Counted from the first letter of the stretch, positions 2,745 to 11,286 are shown. The stretch: 64,000 bases of DNA from an uncultured bacterium (GCA_949285875.1 CASDZZ010000002.1:1101-65100), one strand, 5' to 3'. Program-made: numbers and translations. The notes: a model not told the origin generated them from the sequence alone.

Positions 2745-2884
2745 AATTCATTCCTCCTTTTTGTCTTTTCAAAGTATTTTATGGTATACATACTAATTGT
2801 GTGAATATGTTTATTAAAAAAGTTGTATTTTCAAGAATATTTTGTTATTATATAAGGGTATAATTAAATTGGAGGCAAGATAAA

Positions 2885-4135
2885 ATGGAAGAAAATAAAA
2901 AAGCTGGAGTAAAAAAAGATAGCAAAACAAAAAAAACTACAGCTACAAAGAAAAACGAGACAAAAAAAGCTGAAAAAGCAAAAAAAGTAAATAGTACGAA
3001 AAATAAAGTTACAAAAAAAGATTCAAAGAAAAAAGAAGAAATAAAAGAAGTTGTTAAAGAAGAAGTTAAAAAAGAAAAATTAGAAGTAAAACCTAAAAAA
3101 GAAAATAAATTAAAAAAATGGTTTGATAACCTTACATTAGAGCAACTTATAATTGGTGGTGTTATTGTAATTGCAATTTTACTAATCATTTTAATAGCAG
3201 TTTCAACAAAGAATACTAAAACTAAAGATGGTGATGATATTGTTATTAAAATAGATGGTAAAACAATAACTGCTGACGATCTTTACAAAGAATTAAAAGC
3301 ACAAAATGGTCAAGTAGTAGCTATAAATATGATTGATGACTATATTTTAGATAAAGAATATAAAACTACTGATGATATGAAAGAATCAGCAGAAGCTACA
3401 ATTGAAACTTATAAAAGTACTTATGGTGATAATTTTCAATCATTTCTAGAATATAATGGTTTAAGAGATGAAAGTGAATTAAAAGAATTACTAATTAAAA
3501 ATACTAAATTAGGAAATGCTACTGATGATTATATAAAAGAGAATCTATCAGAAAAAGAACTTAAAGAATATTATGAAAAAGAAATAGTTGGAGATATTAA
3601 AGCCAGTCACATTCTTATTTCTTTCGATTATGAAGATGATGCTACTGATGAAGAAAAAGAAAAAGCTAAAGAAGAAGCAAAAAAGAAAGCAGAAGAAATT
3701 ATTCAAAAATTAAAAGATGGTGCTAAATTTGCTGATTTAGCTAAAGAATATTCAGAAGATGAAAGTACCAAGAAAAATGGTGGTGACTTAGGTTACTTTA
3801 ATAAAGGAGAAATGGAAGAATCTTTTGAAAAAGCTGCTTATGATTTAAAAGTAAATGAATATACTACTACACCAATTGAAACTTCTTATGGTTATCATGT
3901 TATTTTAAAAACAGAAGAAAAAGAAAAACCAAGTTATGAAAAATCAAAAGATACAATAATTGAAAAATTAATAGAAGAAAAGAAAAATGAAGATTCAACA
4001 ATAAGTGTAAAAGCAATGGCTTCATTAAGAGAAAAATATAACATGGTTATAAAAGATAAGACGGTAAAAAGTGATTATGAAACTTATATAAAAAATGCAA
4101 CAACAACCACTACAACAACTACTTCTAGTAATTAA
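2885..4135 (+). CDS. prsA: parvulin-type peptidyl-prolyl isomerase (foldase PrsA-like), membrane-anchored
   Basis: PpiC/parvulin core (GGDLGYFNKGEMEESFEKAAYDLKVNEYTTTPIETSYGYHVI). One TM helix follows a 75-aa Lys/Glu-rich N-terminus. Poly-Thr C-terminal tail. Confidence 0.75.
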   Translation: MEENKKAGVKKDSKTKKTTATKKNETKKAEKAKKVNSTKNKVTKKDSKKKEEIKEVVKEEVKKEKLEVKPKKENKLKKWFDNLTLEQLIIGGVIVIAILLIILIAVSTKNTKTKDGDDIVIKIDGKTITADDLYKELKAQNGQVVAINMIDDYILDKEYKTTDDMKESAEATIETYKSTYGDNFQSFLEYNGLRDESELKELLIKNTKLGNATDDYIKENLSEKELKEYYEKEIVGDIKASHILISFDYEDDATDEEKEKAKEEAKKKAEEIIQKLKDGAKFADLAKEYSEDESTKKNGGDLGYFNKGEMEESFEKAAYDLKVNEYTTTPIETSYGYHVILKTEEKEKPSYEKSKDTIIEKLIEEKKNEDSTISVKAMASLREKYNMVIKDKTVKSDYETYIKNATTTTTTTTSSN

Positions 4136-4137
4136 AA

Positions 4138-4164
4138 AAAGAGGAAAAAAATTCCTCTTTTTTA
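4138..4164. terminator. bidirectional terminator between prsA and recX
   Basis: agaggaa-aaaaa-ttcctct hairpin flanked by an A-run and a T-run. Confidence 0.6.
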
Positions 4165-4938
4165 AATGTCATATAATTGATTTATTTCTTCTTTCGAATA
4201 ACCCTTTTGATATAATTTCCCGCTTATAAAATATTTTAATTTATCCTTGTCATACTTATTTTTATATTTATTAAATAATTTATCAAAATCTTTTTTTAAT
4301 AAATTATAATCTGTTTTAAAATGATGATTTTCTAAGAGTGACATAACATCTGATTTTTCATAACCAAGATTTAAAAAATAATTTAAAATTTTTGTTTTAA
4401 CTGAAGTTACATTTCCTTTTCTTATTTTCAACTGTTTTTCAAACAAATTATACATCTTTTCTTTTAACATATTATAATCAGTTTCCTCTAATACTTCGTC
4501 TATTATTTCTTTTGAAACTCCTAATTTAATTAAATTATTTTTTATTTTTAAAGGACCTGATGTACTTAAAACCAATTGATCATTTGCATAAGCTTTAGCA
4601 AAATTAAAGTCATTAATATAGTTTTCCCTTTCTAATCTACCTACTACTTCCTTAATTTTTTCTTCGTTAATTCCTTTTTTTATCAAATACTGATCTATTT
4701 CTTTTTTACTTCTTAATCTAATTAAAATATAATTTAAGGCTATAAAATAAGCATTAACAGCATTATTTTGTTCTAATAAAAAATCGATTGATTCTTTTTC
4801 TATCTCTTTTTTTAGTAATAAATTATTATCTATTATTACTTCTTCATAAAGAGTAATATTATTTCCATCATCTAAAAAAATTTTATACTTATTCTTAGAA
4901 ATTTTTTTGAATTTTAGTATTTTCATAAACTCCTCCAT
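4162..4938 (-). CDS. recX: recombination regulator RecX
   Basis: Length and helical-repeat pattern typical of RecX (KYKIFLDDGNNITL..., repeated L/K-rich three-helix units). Confidence 0.6.
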   Translation of the reverse strand: MEEFMKILKFKKISKNKYKIFLDDGNNITLYEEVIIDNNLLLKKEIEKESIDFLLEQNNAVNAYFIALNYILIRLRSKKEIDQYLIKKGINEEKIKEVVGRLERENYINDFNFAKAYANDQLVLSTSGPLKIKNNLIKLGVSKEIIDEVLEETDYNMLKEKMYNLFEKQLKIRKGNVTSVKTKILNYFLNLGYEKSDVMSLLENHHFKTDYNLLKKDFDKLFNKYKNKYDKDKLKYFISGKLYQKGYSKEEINQLYDI

Positions 4939-5794: not shown

Positions 5795-5945
5795 TTAAAA
5801 CTTGTTACAACAACCAGGATCAACGTTTGTTACTACGTCTTCTTCAGAACAAGTATATTGTGGCGTATATTTATGTTCTATTATATGGTTATTAATAACT
5901 TTGGTGTGAATTGGACAAATATGTCCTTGCCCTTTTTTGATAGAT

Positions 5946-7529
5946 TTAATTTTTAATTGCTTTATTTATTTCATCAAATAACGCTGAACACTTTTGATAA
6001 TCTGAATTTTTTAAATCTATTAAAATTTTTTCTACTAATTCATTACCATTATTCAATTTTGAAATTGCACTTATATATTTTGATGCTTTATTGTAAATAT
6101 CTCTGCTCTTTTCTTGTTTAAGAATATTATAAAATTCATTAATAAAATGATTATATAATTCATCGTTATAGTTATCTTTTAAAATTTCTATATTATCTAA
6201 CAATAAATATCTATAATTACTATCAATTAATAAGTTCCATAACTTTTCTTGTTTTTCATAAAATTTATAAAGCTTAACAAGTAAGAAAATATCTTTAGTT
6301 TTATTTTCTATAATACTAATAATTTTATCTTCAGTTAAATAATACCCTAAAATATTCAAATACTCAATATGTCCCAAACATAAATAACTATACAAATAAT
6401 GATTCGTATTTATATCTTTATTTTCAAAATCAGTAACCCTAACAAACCTATATAATACATCTGGAATATACATTTTATTTCTAAAATGTTTTTTTTCAAT
6501 TAATTTCATAAAAGATTTATATAAATTCATAATATCATTACTATTTTCTACTATATAATCAATATATTGAAAATATTTAGCATTTTTCAACATTAAACTA
6601 GCACACTCTGTTATGGTAAAATCATTTAATAAATGAATGGCTATTAAGACATTTGATTTTGGAACTGTATTTTTAATACTATAATGTTTTAAACTGCCTA
6701 AATAATCTTCTAATATTTTACAAAATTCATAAATTTCTTCACTACTTTTATTTTTTTTATAAAATTGAGCAATCCATCTATAATCAGAATAAACTGATAA
6801 TTTTTCATTTAATAATATTTTATCTATTTGCAATTGTAATGATTCATTTTTATATAGTTCCTCTATTTTTCTTTTTTCTCTAACATTTAATATTTCTTTA
6901 TCAAAATCATTATAATCATAATTATAATAACCAGTTAGATCTTGAACTCTTTTGTTTAATCTATCTAAAAATACAAACTCATCACTATTATTCTGTAAAT
7001 ATTTTTTATAATTCTTTTCTAGATATAAGTCATATGTTCTTTTCTCATTATTTTTAAGTTCTGTTAACAATGTTGATTTTAATTCTTCTATACTCAAATC
7101 ATCAACATATTTTTCTAATACTACATCAAAAAATAACGGTTTTTCAAAATTAAAAGATTTAATATAATCATGATAATAATCTCCATCGTTATAATAACTA
7201 TCATATTCATAGTAGTCGTCTTCGCCATCTTCATCATAATCACTATTTAGCCAGGATTCATAATCATCTACTTCATCAGGAAACAATTCAAAATATAATG
7301 CAGTCATATGCTTACAAGTAATATTTCCATTTGCATGAGGACAATCACAATATGATTTTCTAGGATGTTTTATATCTATCTTTACATAATAAGGATTTTT
7401 TAAACTTCCATCAACATATCCCTCAAATTCATGATCATTTAATTGTTTTACATTACTAACTTTATTATATTTATAATAGTCATAACCTCTACTAACAGAA
7501 GAACTACTTGCACTTGTAAGAATGCTCAT
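5946..7529 (-). CDS. SWIM zinc-finger domain protein with an acidic Tyr/Asp-rich low-complexity segment
   Basis: CDCPHANGNITCKHMTALYF fits the SWIM pattern CxCx(n)CxH. An acidic stretch DYDEDGEDDYYEYDSYYNDGDYYHDY follows. The rest is alpha-helical and K/N-rich. Confidence 0.7.
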   Translation of the reverse strand: MSILTSASSSSVSRGYDYYKYNKVSNVKQLNDHEFEGYVDGSLKNPYYVKIDIKHPRKSYCDCPHANGNITCKHMTALYFELFPDEVDDYESWLNSDYDEDGEDDYYEYDSYYNDGDYYHDYIKSFNFEKPLFFDVVLEKYVDDLSIEELKSTLLTELKNNEKRTYDLYLEKNYKKYLQNNSDEFVFLDRLNKRVQDLTGYYNYDYNDFDKEILNVREKRKIEELYKNESLQLQIDKILLNEKLSVYSDYRWIAQFYKKNKSSEEIYEFCKILEDYLGSLKHYSIKNTVPKSNVLIAIHLLNDFTITECASLMLKNAKYFQYIDYIVENSNDIMNLYKSFMKLIEKKHFRNKMYIPDVLYRFVRVTDFENKDINTNHYLYSYLCLGHIEYLNILGYYLTEDKIISIIENKTKDIFLLVKLYKFYEKQEKLWNLLIDSNYRYLLLDNIEILKDNYNDELYNHFINEFYNILKQEKSRDIYNKASKYISAISKLNNGNELVEKILIDLKNSDYQKCSALFDEINKAIKN

Positions 7530-7563
7530 ACTACCACCTCTTGATATATTATTATATCATACC

Positions 7564-9132
7564 CTAATTAGAATTATTAAAACTAACTTTAATTTTTATA
7601 GTTTTATCTTCAAAGATTTCTATTTTATCAATTAGATTAATTATTAATTCTCGGCTTGGTTCTTTCATAGATAAAAACTTATTAATATATTCATGAATCA
7701 TTTTATTTTTATATTCTTCATGAATAGTATCATCGATCTCATTATTTAACTCGTTATATCTTTTTTGTTTTATATTTAATTCATTTTCTAGTTTTAATTT
7801 TAATCTTTCAAATTGTTCTTCGGTTATCTTTTTATTTAATTTATCAATATAAATAATATCTAAGTTATCATTTATTTGTTTAATATCTTTGGTAAGTATT
7901 TCTAACTCTTTTTTATTATTAAACTTATTATCTTCTGTTAAATTATTTAATACATTATTTTTTATTTCATCTTTATTAAGATAATTTAAACACATATTAA
8001 TTAAAGATTTAATTATCGTTTTCTCTAATTCATCATAATTATTTGAATGAGTTGTACAAAGTTTTTGTTTCATATAAGTTCGATAATAATTACAAACAGT
8101 ATAACATCTATTATCTTTTTTTCTTCTTGCTTGTACTGAAATGCGATGTCCACAATCACCACAATATAAAAGCCCATCTAATAAATGATTTTCTTTCTTT
8201 TCATTTCTTCCCACATTTTTAGGTATTCTTTTTCGCGTTTCATAAAAGGTATCCTTATCAATAATCGCCTCATGGGTATTCTCTACAATTATATAGTCGC
8301 ATACATTATTTTTAATAACTTTTTTAACTTTATAATTAACTTTACTTCTTCTATTTTGAACCATATCTCCTATATACATCCTATTAGTTAAAATATCTCT
8401 TATTGTTTTAGAATGCCACTCTCCATACTTTAAATTATAATTATTTTTCCATTCAAAACTATAATACCCAGCTGGTGTTTTGACTCCTTCATTCGTTAAC
8501 TGTTTTGCTATTTTAAAAAATGATAATCCCTCTAAACACATATCAAAAATTCTTTTAACAACTAATGCTTGTTCTTCATTTATTACCAAATGATTTTTAT
8601 CATTCGGATCTTGATCATATCCAAATGGAGTTCTACCTCCTACCCATTTTCCTTCTTTTTGTTTTGCTCTTAAACTTGATTTAATTTTTTTAGAGATATC
8701 TTTAGCATACATATCATTCATAATTGCCTTGAATGGTGCAATATCATTATTAGAATTATCTAGAAAAGTGTCTATATTATCTGTAACTGCAATATACCTT
8801 ACATTATGCTCTGGAAAATACTTTTCTATTAAATTACCTGTACCAATATAATCTCTTCCTAATCTTGACATATCTTTAGTAATAACCATATTAACTCTAC
8901 CTAATTCAATATCATTTAATAATCTATTGAAATCGGGTCTATCAAAATTAGTTCCACTATATCCATCATCAATATAAATATCATAGACTCTTAAATTATT
9001 TTCTTTAACATATTGAAGTAATAAACTCTTTTGATTTGTAATACTTTCACTTTCTAATGCTTTATCATCATCTTCACGAGATAACCTTATATAAATACCA
9101 ACATTATATATCTTATTTATACTCCCTAACAA
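7564..9132 (-). CDS. large serine recombinase (resolvase/invertase N-domain + recombinase domain + zinc ribbon + coiled coil)
   Basis: GIYIRLSREDDDK...SITNQ catalytic-Ser motif. Downstream Cys cluster CGDCGHR...CYTVCNYYR. C-terminal coiled coil. TTG start with a GGAGG RBS. Confidence 0.85.
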   Translation of the reverse strand: MLGSINKIYNVGIYIRLSREDDDKALESESITNQKSLLLQYVKENNLRVYDIYIDDGYSGTNFDRPDFNRLLNDIELGRVNMVITKDMSRLGRDYIGTGNLIEKYFPEHNVRYIAVTDNIDTFLDNSNNDIAPFKAIMNDMYAKDISKKIKSSLRAKQKEGKWVGGRTPFGYDQDPNDKNHLVINEEQALVVKRIFDMCLEGLSFFKIAKQLTNEGVKTPAGYYSFEWKNNYNLKYGEWHSKTIRDILTNRMYIGDMVQNRRSKVNYKVKKVIKNNVCDYIIVENTHEAIIDKDTFYETRKRIPKNVGRNEKKENHLLDGLLYCGDCGHRISVQARRKKDNRCYTVCNYYRTYMKQKLCTTHSNNYDELEKTIIKSLINMCLNYLNKDEIKNNVLNNLTEDNKFNNKKELEILTKDIKQINDNLDIIYIDKLNKKITEEQFERLKLKLENELNIKQKRYNELNNEIDDTIHEEYKNKMIHEYINKFLSMKEPSRELIINLIDKIEIFEDKTIKIKVSFNNSN

Positions 9133-9302
9133 TTCTTACCTCCTTCTAGAGATAAATAAGTACATGATGATGGTACCTCACAATTTTTATTTTTACAAAT
9201 TGTTTTAATATATTTTTTAAGTTCTTTATTTAAAACATTTATTAAGATATCATTTACATCTTTTTCTTTATTAAAAATAAAATTTATTTTGTACTTATCC
9301 AT
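9123..9302 (-). CDS. small hypothetical protein (59 aa) overlapping the recombinase start by 10 nt
   Basis: GAGGTG RBS 8 nt upstream of the ATG at 9302. Product MDKYKINFIFNKEKDVNDILINVLNKELKKYIKTICKNKNCEVPSSCTYLSLEGGKNC. Under 60 aa, so absent from the ORF track. Confidence 0.4.
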
Positions 9303-9346
9303 AACTCTCGCACCTCACTTAAATTTATGGATAAATAACTAATTTT

Positions 9347-9397
9347 AGTAATACTAAATCGTGTAAATATCACATTACACATTAATTTAGTATTACT
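9347..9397. promoter_or_regulatory. 51-bp imperfect palindrome (operator or att-like site) upstream of the small-ORF/recombinase operon
   Basis: 13-bp perfect inverted repeat agtaatactaaat at 9347-9359 and 9385-9397, enclosing an inner inverted repeat gtgtaa / ttacac (9361-9366 and 9375-9380). On the minus strand it overlaps a TAAAAT -10-like box about 45 nt ahead of the ATG at 9302. Confidence 0.5.
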
Positions 9398-9718
9398 TAT
9401 AGGTATTCACCTCTTTAATAATTATTTTTTAAATTTTCATAAACATCATCTCCTTTCACGATGCATGCTAACTTACTAATCAATTCTTATTAATCAATTC
9501 TTGTCAAATCATATTTTTTTGCTTTAATTATTCTAAATACCATTATTTTTTATTAATTCTACTAAAGCAGGATAAGATGATGACACCACAATATAAAAAA
9601 AGCCCTTATACAATAAGGATTTGTTATGGTGTCATTCTTATTTTATACTTACAAAATTCATCCTACTTCGCAGGTTAATATAAAGGGTAAATTCTTATTT
9701 TATAAGATATTAAAGCAT

Positions 9719-9766
9719 ATAAAAACATCCTATATTTAATAAATTAATTATTTTTGTAGGATGTTT
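9719..9766 (-). terminator. terminator after the Fic gene
   Basis: aacatccta...taggatgtt 9-bp stem followed by a T-run on the minus strand. Confidence 0.5.
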
Positions 9767-9772
9767 AATTTT

Positions 9773-10543
9773 TTAATTGTTTTCTTCAATTTTAAAATCT
9801 AGTAATTCTTCACACATTTTTTCGTATAAATCTTGTTCATGTCTAATAGTATCAATCAAGAACATTTTATCATTTTCGTATTCTTTTAAACCTCTCATAT
9901 AATAAGGTTTATCATCATCTAATACAATAAATGGCATAATGTTATTTCTTAAACATTCTTTAAACATTATAATTCTACCTACACGACCATTTCCATCTCC
10001 AAATGGATGAATTCTTTCAAATCTAAAATGAAAATCAACTATATCTTCTAAAGTAATACTAATTTTAGAATTATATTCATTTAATAATTCTTCTATTTCT
10101 TTTTCAACATCTTCTGGTGCTGTAGTATTAATAACATTAACTACACCTATTATATTAGGAACAATTTTAAATCCACCAACATTATATCTAGGATTTTCTT
10201 CATCACTAGTATTTCTTTTTAAAATCTTATTCATTTCAATTATCATATCTTCAGTTAATGAGTTATCAACGTTATCTAACATATAATCAAATAATTTAAA
10301 ATGATTTTTAGATTCGATTAAATCATCTAATTTAATTAAATCATCACTTTTAGGAACAAATGAAGATGTATCGAATATTGCTTCGGTTTGATCACTTGTT
10401 AATCTACTACCTTCAATTTTATTTGAATTATAAGCAAAATTAACTTGTGAATAATGATATATATTACCTTTAAATTTAGACTCTTTTTGTTTAATTAATT
10501 CATTTTTAATTTTATTTATATCCATATATTCATTTCTCCTCAT
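9773..10543 (-). CDS. Fic/Doc family protein (Fido), class-II-like with an N-terminal inhibitory motif
   Basis: Core Fic motif HPFGDGNGRVGR. N-terminal SNKIEG matches the inhibitory motif (S/T)xxxE(G/N). Confidence 0.85.
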   Translation of the reverse strand: MRRNEYMDINKIKNELIKQKESKFKGNIYHYSQVNFAYNSNKIEGSRLTSDQTEAIFDTSSFVPKSDDLIKLDDLIESKNHFKLFDYMLDNVDNSLTEDMIIEMNKILKRNTSDEENPRYNVGGFKIVPNIIGVVNVINTTAPEDVEKEIEELLNEYNSKISITLEDIVDFHFRFERIHPFGDGNGRVGRIIMFKECLRNNIMPFIVLDDDKPYYMRGLKEYENDKMFLIDTIRHEQDLYEKMCEELLDFKIEENN

Positions 10544-11016
10544 TTTATATTATTTAAACGTTTTAATATTTTATAACTATTTTCTAATCTATCTCTTTCT
10601 GATTTAAAATCTTCCATATCATTAGTTAATATATAACCACCTGTTTCTATAAATTCTTGATTATAATTACTTGCTAAAGAAATCCATTTTTCTGCATCAG
10701 AATGAGATAAGTGCACCATTTCCAGACATTCTAGTTCATCATCATACAAGCCAAACCAATTTTCATCATAAGGTCTATCATCGATATAAATAATATCTCC
10801 AAAGATTGATAGCATTAAATCTTTAAAATTTTTATATGTTAAGCTCTGTTCATCTTTTGAAAAAATGTCTGTTTTATAACCATAATTGCTAAAAAGTTCA
10901 TTCAATTTTGGAACTATTTCATTAATATGATTTTCATTGAATTCTATCATAGAGGTAGTTCCATAATGATAAACGTTAGCTATCATTATTCTAATTATTA
11001 ATTCTATTTCACTCAT
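10540..11016 (-). CDS. hypothetical protein translationally coupled to Fic; possible antitoxin or immunity partner
   Basis: Its stop overlaps the Fic start as ATGA. 158-aa acidic protein with no clear motif. Confidence 0.5.
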   Translation of the reverse strand: MSEIELIIRIMIANVYHYGTTSMIEFNENHINEIVPKLNELFSNYGYKTDIFSKDEQSLTYKNFKDLMLSIFGDIIYIDDRPYDENWFGLYDDELECLEMVHLSHSDAEKWISLASNYNQEFIETGGYILTNDMEDFKSERDRLENSYKILKRLNNIK

Positions 11017-11133
11017 TTATCATCACCTGATTCGATATCTATTAAAATTATACCATATAATAAGACATTTTTTATCAATATGTCTTTCATTTGTACTTAT
11101 TTTCTCTTAATTTATTTAGTCTATCATAAATTA

Positions 11134-11286
11134 TCACACTTGTTCAACAGTATGACAAATATCTCTAGTTACACATTTTTCTATTGTTGGTTCTATAACT
11201 GGATTACAAGGAAATTCTGTTGGACACTTGTTTTCACAGCAGCAGTCATTCATTTGAAAACCGCCAAACTTATTATTAAAAAACAT
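11134..11286 (-). CDS. Cys-rich small protein (50 aa, MFFNNKFGGFQMNDCCCENKCPTEFPCNPVIEPTIEKCVTRDICHTVEQV)
   Basis: GGGGGA RBS 6 nt upstream. Lies directly downstream of ffh with no intervening terminator. The strand-opposite 77-aa ORF 11080..11313 is less plausible. Confidence 0.45.
   Translation of the reverse strand: MFFNNKFGGFQMNDCCCENKCPTEFPCNPVIEPTIEKCVTRDICHTVEQV

Follow-up and report, generated by a model that had tools for sequence, protein, structure and literature searches.

In class I Fic pairs, such as FicT-FicA and VbhT-VbhA, a small protein encoded upstream supplies the (S/T)xxxE(G/N) helix, and the Fic protein has no such helix of its own. In CdFic of C. difficile the inhibitory glutamate is N-terminal, as it is in BtFic and FICD (PMC6408439). 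Among mobile elements, gin, an intervening element of non-phage type located in the gerE gene of B. cereus, requires GirC, a serine recombinase, together with the small factor GirX (PMC5595907). Here we analyse a locus that can be compared with all three: a Fic gene, the gene upstream of it, coding for a protein of 158 amino acids (aa; hereafter 'the partner'), and the large-serine-recombinase element in which both are found, in a stretch of 64,000 nucleotides (nt) of DNA from an uncultured bacterium (GCA_949285875.1, CASDZZ010000002.1:1101-65100; hereafter 'the window'). The original prediction, made from this sequence, saw in the two genes a self-inhibited Fic translationally coupled to an antitoxin- or immunity-like partner.

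The results of this work favor a different arrangement. Probably, the two genes form a unit in which a CdFic-like class II Fic cassette, equipped with its own ribosome-binding site and having no promoter, stands behind an orphan cargo gene that supplies the promoter, and no dedicated regulator is involved. The evidence for this comes from the anatomy of the Fic gene and, above all, from what stands upstream of its relatives in other loci (given L numbers below).

The Fic protein and its start codon

The longest open reading frame (ORF) of the Fic gene, recognized by ORF calling and by its matches to Pfam and to solved structures (PDB), lies on the minus strand at 9773..10543 and codes for 256 aa. 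It matches the Pfam Fic/DOC family (PF02661) with 56.7 bits, for a cut-off of 24 (E 4.5e-15). The catalytic loop HPFGDGNGRVGR, at residues 179-190, fits HxFx(D/E)GNGRxxR, and the inhibitory-helix motif SNKIEG, at residues 40-45, is N-terminal to the Fic core; both ORFs and both motifs are as the original prediction described them. The best solved relative is CdFic (PDB 4X2E; E 1.4e-31, about 210 residues aligned), whose catalytic loop aligns with that of the window Fic. Position by position, SNKIEGS coincides with the inhibitory motif of CdFic, a stretch that reads ANKIAG in the S31A/E35A mutant (4X2C). This exact alignment, together with the N-terminal position of the glutamate (PMC6408439), supports the assignment of the window Fic to the CdFic-like, self-inhibited type of class II, so that the class II-like character attributed to it earlier holds. 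The resemblance to the CdFic structures (4X2C/4X2D/4X2E) thus covers the identical N-terminal SNKIEGS, the canonical loop and the single domain of about 235-250 aa. The identity between the two proteins is moderate, however, and the window Fic, unlike CdFic, is the cargo of a serine-recombinase element and is known here from sequence.

The start of the gene deserves attention, since the coupling postulated earlier was built on it. In the window sequence, the TGA of the partner overlaps an ATG in the Fic frame, giving ATGA. This overlap is real, but the translational coupling read into it does not withstand comparison. When the 48 nt upstream of Fic are aligned across 20 related loci, an ATG GAT ATA start is shared by 20/20, and it is equivalent to M7 of the window ORF (ATG at 10525..10523, minus strand), 18 nt downstream of the ATG within ATGA. 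A GGAG or GAGG precedes the Fic start by 7-10 nt, again in 20/20; in the window it is part of a GGAGA Shine-Dalgarno sequence at 10535..10539 (minus strand), which begins directly past the partner TGA and is kept in all the related Fic loci. In the closest partner-bearing relatives the upstream ATG of the window reads TTG, and the distance from partner stop to Fic start is 23-24 nt. The window partner is longer by three codons, which creates the ATGA overlap, and the overlap is unique to the window. Given the start codon and the GGAG conserved throughout the alignment, and the TTG of the relatives, the ATG within ATGA is probably not the Fic start, and the working arrangement would be a 14-nt spacer holding the Shine-Dalgarno sequence, followed by a Fic of 250 aa. 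Most close Fic homologues have 245-253 aa, in line with this length.

The upstream gene and its relation to Fic

The partner gene (10540..11016, minus strand) occupies a variable cargo slot between attL, one of the attachment sites of the element, and Fic, and codes for an alpha/beta protein. Its family is very small, with 27 homologues among 5.8 billion clusters; a profile search gave 17 matches among 1.84 billion cluster representatives, a few full-length relatives at 24-31% identity being among them. The structure model of the partner is confident (pLDDT, the model's own confidence score, of 85). It found no fold match with Foldseek, and sequence and profile searches of PDB gave no match either. 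Against Pfam, NCBIfam, PHROGs and PADLOC, the partner returned sub-threshold noise only (e.g., ZorC at E 0.006, and XFP_N), and it is absent from the viral contigs of IMG/VR, the phages of INPHARED and the plasmids of PLSDB, which speaks against a phage or plasmid gene. The partner belongs, as far as sequence and model allow one to say, to a narrow orphan family for which no relative could be detected, despite a confidently predicted structure.

The identities that could have made a regulator of it were considered one after the other. A SUKH/SMI1-type immunity protein, to which the original prediction had likened it, finds no backing: none of 20 partner-family members matches the SUKH/SMI1-KNR4 families of Pfam at E up to 5, and Foldseek returned no match for the model. 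Of the pattern FG…D…W…G…HLSHSD…EF, on which that resemblance was based, the HLSHSD stretch is not conserved across the family, whose invariant or nearly invariant core is F..FG.YD...FIE.GSY. An antitoxin of the FicA/VbhA type is rejected as well, (S/T)xxxE(G/N) being not conserved among 22 family members and occurring in two of them as chance matches at non-aligned positions. With class I pairs the locus shares a small ORF placed immediately before Fic; it departs from them in that the window Fic itself has the motif, the upstream family has no conserved one, and the upstream gene is interchangeable. The protein is acidic, as was claimed (pI 4.5), but this is no distinction, because Fic is as acidic as its partner (pI 4.76); acidity is therefore uninformative here, and a DNA mimic or anti-restriction protein, which might be read from it, was discarded. 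An alternative code in which TGA is read as tryptophan, and which would erase the partner's stop, was discarded too: TGA ends 5/49 long ORFs, conserved genes are intact under table 11, and partner relatives end in TAA.

If the partner were Fic's own antitoxin, it should accompany Fic, which is exactly what we do not see. In a Fic-seeded scan of metagenome contigs comprising 80 loci, searched by tblastn with the partner and with three of its diverged relatives, the partner was found in 0/80, even at Fic identities of 84-93%. Clustering the gene just upstream of each Fic, at a Fic identity of at least 70%, gave 22 unrelated clusters, many with gaps of 1-30 nt to Fic, and the members of the partner cluster are the window and the loci retrieved by the partner search, and no others. 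In the partner's position one finds a Peptidase_MA protein (L027, gap 3 nt), an ASCH/transglutaminase-like protein (L004 and L030, 1 nt), a GNAT (L031, 30 nt; L061, 133 nt), an Exo_endo_phos protein (L025, 26 nt), a HAD (L035, 24 nt), a DUF4186 (L032, 34 nt), a 136-aa orphan (L029, L041 and L044, 20-30 nt), a serine recombinase (L036, L038 and L040, 20-21 nt) or a P-type ATPase (L016-L024, 95-96 nt). No remote homology links the partner to the other slot genes (hhalign probabilities <1%). The replacement is seen between very similar elements: L030, with the closest recombinase (96% identical, and SWIM cargo 81% identical), has GNAT and ASCH genes in the partner's place, and L025, whose Fic is 92% identical and which has the same 58-aa gene and recombinase, has a different gene in the slot. 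In L004, a 302-aa gene stands between partner and Fic. In a neighbour-joining tree of Fic proteins (made without bootstrap), partner-bearing and partner-free loci are interleaved.

The reverse holds as well. Relatives of the partner occur where there is no Fic, in five or six contexts, among them upstream of an intact cotD-family gene (L008 and L013), between mscL and uvrB (L014/L015), and in L106-L108. Since so many unrelated genes stand equally close to Fic, tight upstream linkage is a property of the Fic cassette and no evidence for a specific partner; and since Fic is found at 70-95% identity 1-30 nt behind many of them, it needs no trans-acting antitoxin. All this indicates that the partner is not a dedicated regulator or antitoxin of Fic, and that the upstream slot is interchangeable. 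The pair, then, is for the most part not conserved together elsewhere, one of the findings the original prediction had named as telling against it; the other, a clear unrelated fold or function of the partner, was not found, the protein being an orphan.

How the unit might be expressed follows from its geometry. A spacer of 14 nt leaves no room for a promoter, so Fic would be read from the partner's transcript. The sequence TGGTATAAT at 11047..11055 (minus strand), some 30 nt ahead of the partner's start codon, resembles a promoter with an extended -10 element, and TGnTATAAT sites like it stand before the partner homologues of L012, L008 and L013. Right after the Fic stop, at 9723..9766 (minus strand), there is a terminator-like hairpin of 10 bp followed by a T-run (folding energy -11.8 kcal/mol, z -3.05). 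Transcription would start at the extended -10 site, cross partner and Fic, and stop at the hairpin past the Fic stop codon. This way, the partner gene would supply the promoter and read-through would express Fic, which would be translated from the ATG at 10525 by means of the GGAG beside the partner's stop codon, and the glutamate of SNKIEG would keep the enzyme inactive.

Some observations weigh against this arrangement. The TGGTATAAT site was read from the sequence and is not among the results of a consensus promoter scan; promoter and terminator calls concern strongly AT-rich DNA, in which shuffled sequence yields consensus matches at least as often. The minimal element L012, of 3.4 kb, keeps the partner, Fic, the 58-aa gene and the recombinase alone, and the order partner-Fic is kept in at least three sub-lineages of the element, with partner identities of 62-78%. 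Because the minimal element has kept the pair, there is a small probability of a functional link between partner and Fic that is specific to this lineage.

Other roles for the partner have to be weighed against the orphan cargo gene proposed here. It might be an independent accessory gene that aids the element or the host, for instance in anti-defence or in association with defence, as other slot genes might. The end slots do hold genes of the type found in defence islands (NERD, Bro-N, SIR2, SWIM/PDC-S62-like, Exo_endo_phos, and GNAT with ASCH), and the partner has a promoter-like site of its own. We regard this as unlikely, given that the partner has no match in PADLOC, PHROGs or the phage, plasmid and viral-contig collections and that members of its family occur in housekeeping contexts too; it is, moreover, compatible with the arrangement we favor, from which it differs solely in giving the partner a role. 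Alternatively, the partner could belong with the neighbouring CotD-family gene, as a spore or envelope factor or its regulator, and be linked to Fic by position only. In L008 and L013, some 70 nt separate its homologues from an intact cotD downstream, the window partner lies 117 nt after a cotD 5′ fragment, and the adjacency thus holds in both arrangements. Distant members of the family (L014/15, at mscL-uvrB, and L106-108) have no cotD nearby, however, the partner is inside the att boundaries and would leave with the element, and neither its sequence nor its fold gives any clue to a function in spores, all of which makes such a tie improbable.

That the partner is, after all, a dedicated trans regulator of Fic (antitoxin, immunity protein, activator or sensor) in a two-gene module is suggested by the linkage itself: spacers of 14-24 nt on the same strand, probably one transcript, a pair kept in the minimal 3.4-kb element and in several sub-lineages, and a partner that is a real, conserved and, by prediction, well-folded protein. 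We hold this to be very improbable in view of the inhibitory motif within Fic, the 0/80 count, the 22 unrelated genes equally tight in the same position, the Fic-free relatives and the missing FicA-type and SUKH/SMI1 signals, the more so because the pairs seen all fall in one lineage of mobile elements, where co-occurrence is explained by descent. More doubtful still is a partner that modulates a self-inhibited Fic in trans within this sub-lineage, e.g., as an activator that senses a trigger and dislodges the inhibitory glutamate, or as a mimic of the target, the interchangeable upstream genes being perhaps alternative input modules for one effector.

The recombinase element and the split CotD-family gene

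The pair lies, as was originally predicted, inside a recombinase island. This is an element of 5.2 kb, at about 5922-11143, bounded by att arms and carrying a large serine recombinase, with partner and Fic at its attL-proximal end. It is inserted between ffh on one side and rpoZ with a RecX-like gene on the other, and these flanks are syntenic in related loci. On the minus strand the order is attL, partner, Fic, about 470 nt without an ORF, the 58-aa gene, the recombinase, a 527-aa SWIM-like protein and attR.

The attL site is at 11120..11143 (minus strand), with the crossover ACA at 11143..11141 and the element-side arm GTGATAATTTATGATAGA at 11137..11120; attR is at 5922..5943 (minus strand), with the element-side arm CTATCAAAAAAGGGCA at 5943..5928 and the crossover ACA at 5924..5922. 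TCTATCA in the attR arm is the reverse complement of TGATAGA in the attL arm. Every complete copy of the element on the recovered contigs is bounded by both arms, GTGATAATTTATGATAGA at one end and CTATCAAAAAAGGGCA at the other; copies that end at a contig edge show one arm, and L025 has diverged in its right-hand arm.

What the element interrupts is a small Cys/His-rich gene, whose 5′ fragment, of 50 codons, is at 11134..11286 and whose 3′ fragment is at about 5795..5938, both on the minus strand. Joined at the shared ACA, the fragments give an in-frame ORF of 90 aa, which matches the Pfam family Spore-coat_CotD at 23.7 bits (cut-off 22), and intact homologues in L032 and L039 bear exactly the predicted junction codons, EVPHVCPIHT. 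Precise excision would, on this comparison, restore the 90-aa CotD-family frame, the predicted junctions being CATACTGTTGAACATATTTGTCCAATTCAC for attB and CTATCAAAAAAGGGCAAGGACAAGTGTGATAATTTATGATAGA for the circular attP.

The recombinase itself (7564..9132, minus strand) is a protein of 522 aa and has Resolvase, Recombinase and Zn_ribbon_recom domains. The 58-aa Cys-containing protein is encoded at 9126..9302 (minus strand), the end of its gene overlapping the start of the recombinase gene by 7 nt; it has no family match, adjoins the recombinase in all elements of the sub-type (56-93% identity), and by its position is a candidate recombination directionality factor. The stretch of about 470 nt at 9303-9772 contains no ORF of at least 50 aa, and Rfam gave no match to it at E up to 1; L009 and L010 have a comparable gap, and the recombinase operon may be controlled from here. 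A structured RNA in the region was considered and rejected, the Rfam search having returned one chance match to a small nucleolar RNA. At the right end, the cargo is the 527-aa protein with a SWIM-like N-terminus (5946..7529, minus strand), the first 80 residues or so of which match PADLOC PDC-S62 at E 3e-9, and which has relatives in L030 (81%) and L063 (44%).

The gin element is the nearest described analogue. With elements of the gin/skin type (PMC5595907), the window element has in common its small size, its non-phage character, a large serine recombinase with a small accessory gene, and an insertion in a short gene of sporulation type, whose frame precise excision is here predicted to restore. 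In contrast to them, it interrupts a CotD-family gene, its hosts are low-GC gut Bacilli that have not been cultured, and it carries Fic and variable cargo. Of five records of metagenome-assembled genomes from these hosts, one bears the label 'Tenericutes'.

Related copies, of 3.4 kb and larger, occupy the same ffh-rpoZ site in several uncultured gut Bacilli, and other copies hold NERD, Bro-N, PHP or SIR2 genes in their end slots. A second type of element uses the same cotD site in dozens of human-gut assemblies (L016-L024; e.g., L016 342-5895), in the order cotD 5′ half, a 506-aa recombinase (55% identical to that of the window), a P-type cation ATPase, Fic (86-87%) and cotD 3′ half, the last beginning 22 nt past Fic.

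Some arrangements do not fit a simple scheme. The partner homologues that stand some 70 nt ahead of an intact cotD-family gene (L008 1816-2642 and L013 1555-2399; 58-62% identical) are found without Fic, recombinase or att arms, and no simple rearrangement, whether excision or inversion, was found that joins this order to that of the window, where the partner is inside attL. L013 has the cotD 3′ part twice (2274-2399 and 4149-4286), with 100% amino-acid identity, flanking Bro-N and NERD; it has no recombinase, and ahead of the second copy stand the 'KKGQGH' codons that are usual at attR. In L028 (5691-7470) both att arms flank 1.8 kb with nothing but an ASCH fragment, Fic and a 113-aa ORF, with neither recombinase nor cotD flanks, and the left flank resembles a degenerate P arm, as in an attP-like junction; this segment may have arisen as a non-autonomous derivative, or it may represent an insertion that is nested or in tandem.

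Spread and possible role of the Fic cassette

Homologues of the window Fic are numerous: more than 7,430 score at E <1e-10, and identity to the window protein does not fall below 83% in any of the top 120 clusters. Between the window and L001-L012, Fic is 85-95% identical and the recombinase 84-93%, whereas ffh reaches only 69-73% and rpoZ about 61-64%; for L012 in particular, the identities are 88% for Fic, 85% for the recombinase, 62% for the partner, 69% for ffh and 61% for rpoZ. Conservation of Fic and recombinase so far above that of ffh and rpoZ points to a recent horizontal spread of the backbone that these two genes form.

As to function, Fic matches the PADLOC candidate PDC-S04 (model PDLC04836) over nearly its full length (residues 9-248; E 1.4e-100), and PHROG 11900 at E 7e-41. 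The likeness to PDC-S04 includes the single-gene architecture on a mobile island beside defence-type genes. One test of PDC-S04 in a native host showed no defence activity (bioRxiv 10.1101/2024.12.20.629700); the family is a computational defence candidate only, and the defence role is putative. The validated system SoFic is a different and larger Fic, and identity with it was rejected: the NCBIfam SoFic model gives 30.4 bits for a cut-off of 550, and the PADLOC SoFic match (E 3.9e-20) is far weaker than that to PDC-S04.

Relatives at 47% identity were also met on small plasmids. In 3.5-kb plasmids of H. pylori (L109, pHPO100, 2801-3520), such a Fic is the sole cargo, 35 nt behind rep, and in a plasmid of C. 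helveticus (Campylobacter), a HipA-domain gene and the Fic relative overlap at the stop codon of the former (L110 3001-3744).

Judging from the genomic contexts, this Fic subfamily seems to be a typical cargo of minimal mobile elements, be they the recombinase element, 3.5-kb plasmids or phage satellites. Such frequent carriage suggests that the role of Fic is in the maintenance of the element or in defence against phages. After some cue, the otherwise inactive enzyme would AMPylate a cellular or phage target, and the growth arrest that results would benefit the element, by phage defence (as the candidate PDC-S04 would have it) or by its maintenance.

In conclusion, a class II Fic that retains an antitoxin-like partner would, if true, have challenged the classification of Fic proteins; the evidence allows this framing to be dropped. 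The locus exemplifies, rather, a highly mobile CdFic-like cassette whose transcription would depend on whatever gene stands upstream. More noteworthy than the Fic-partner pair, in our opinion, is the recombinase element that splits cotD. Serine-recombinase elements of 3.4-5.2 kb that split a CotD-family gene and carry defence-type cargo extend the known gene-intervening elements, and could yield new recombinase/att pairs.

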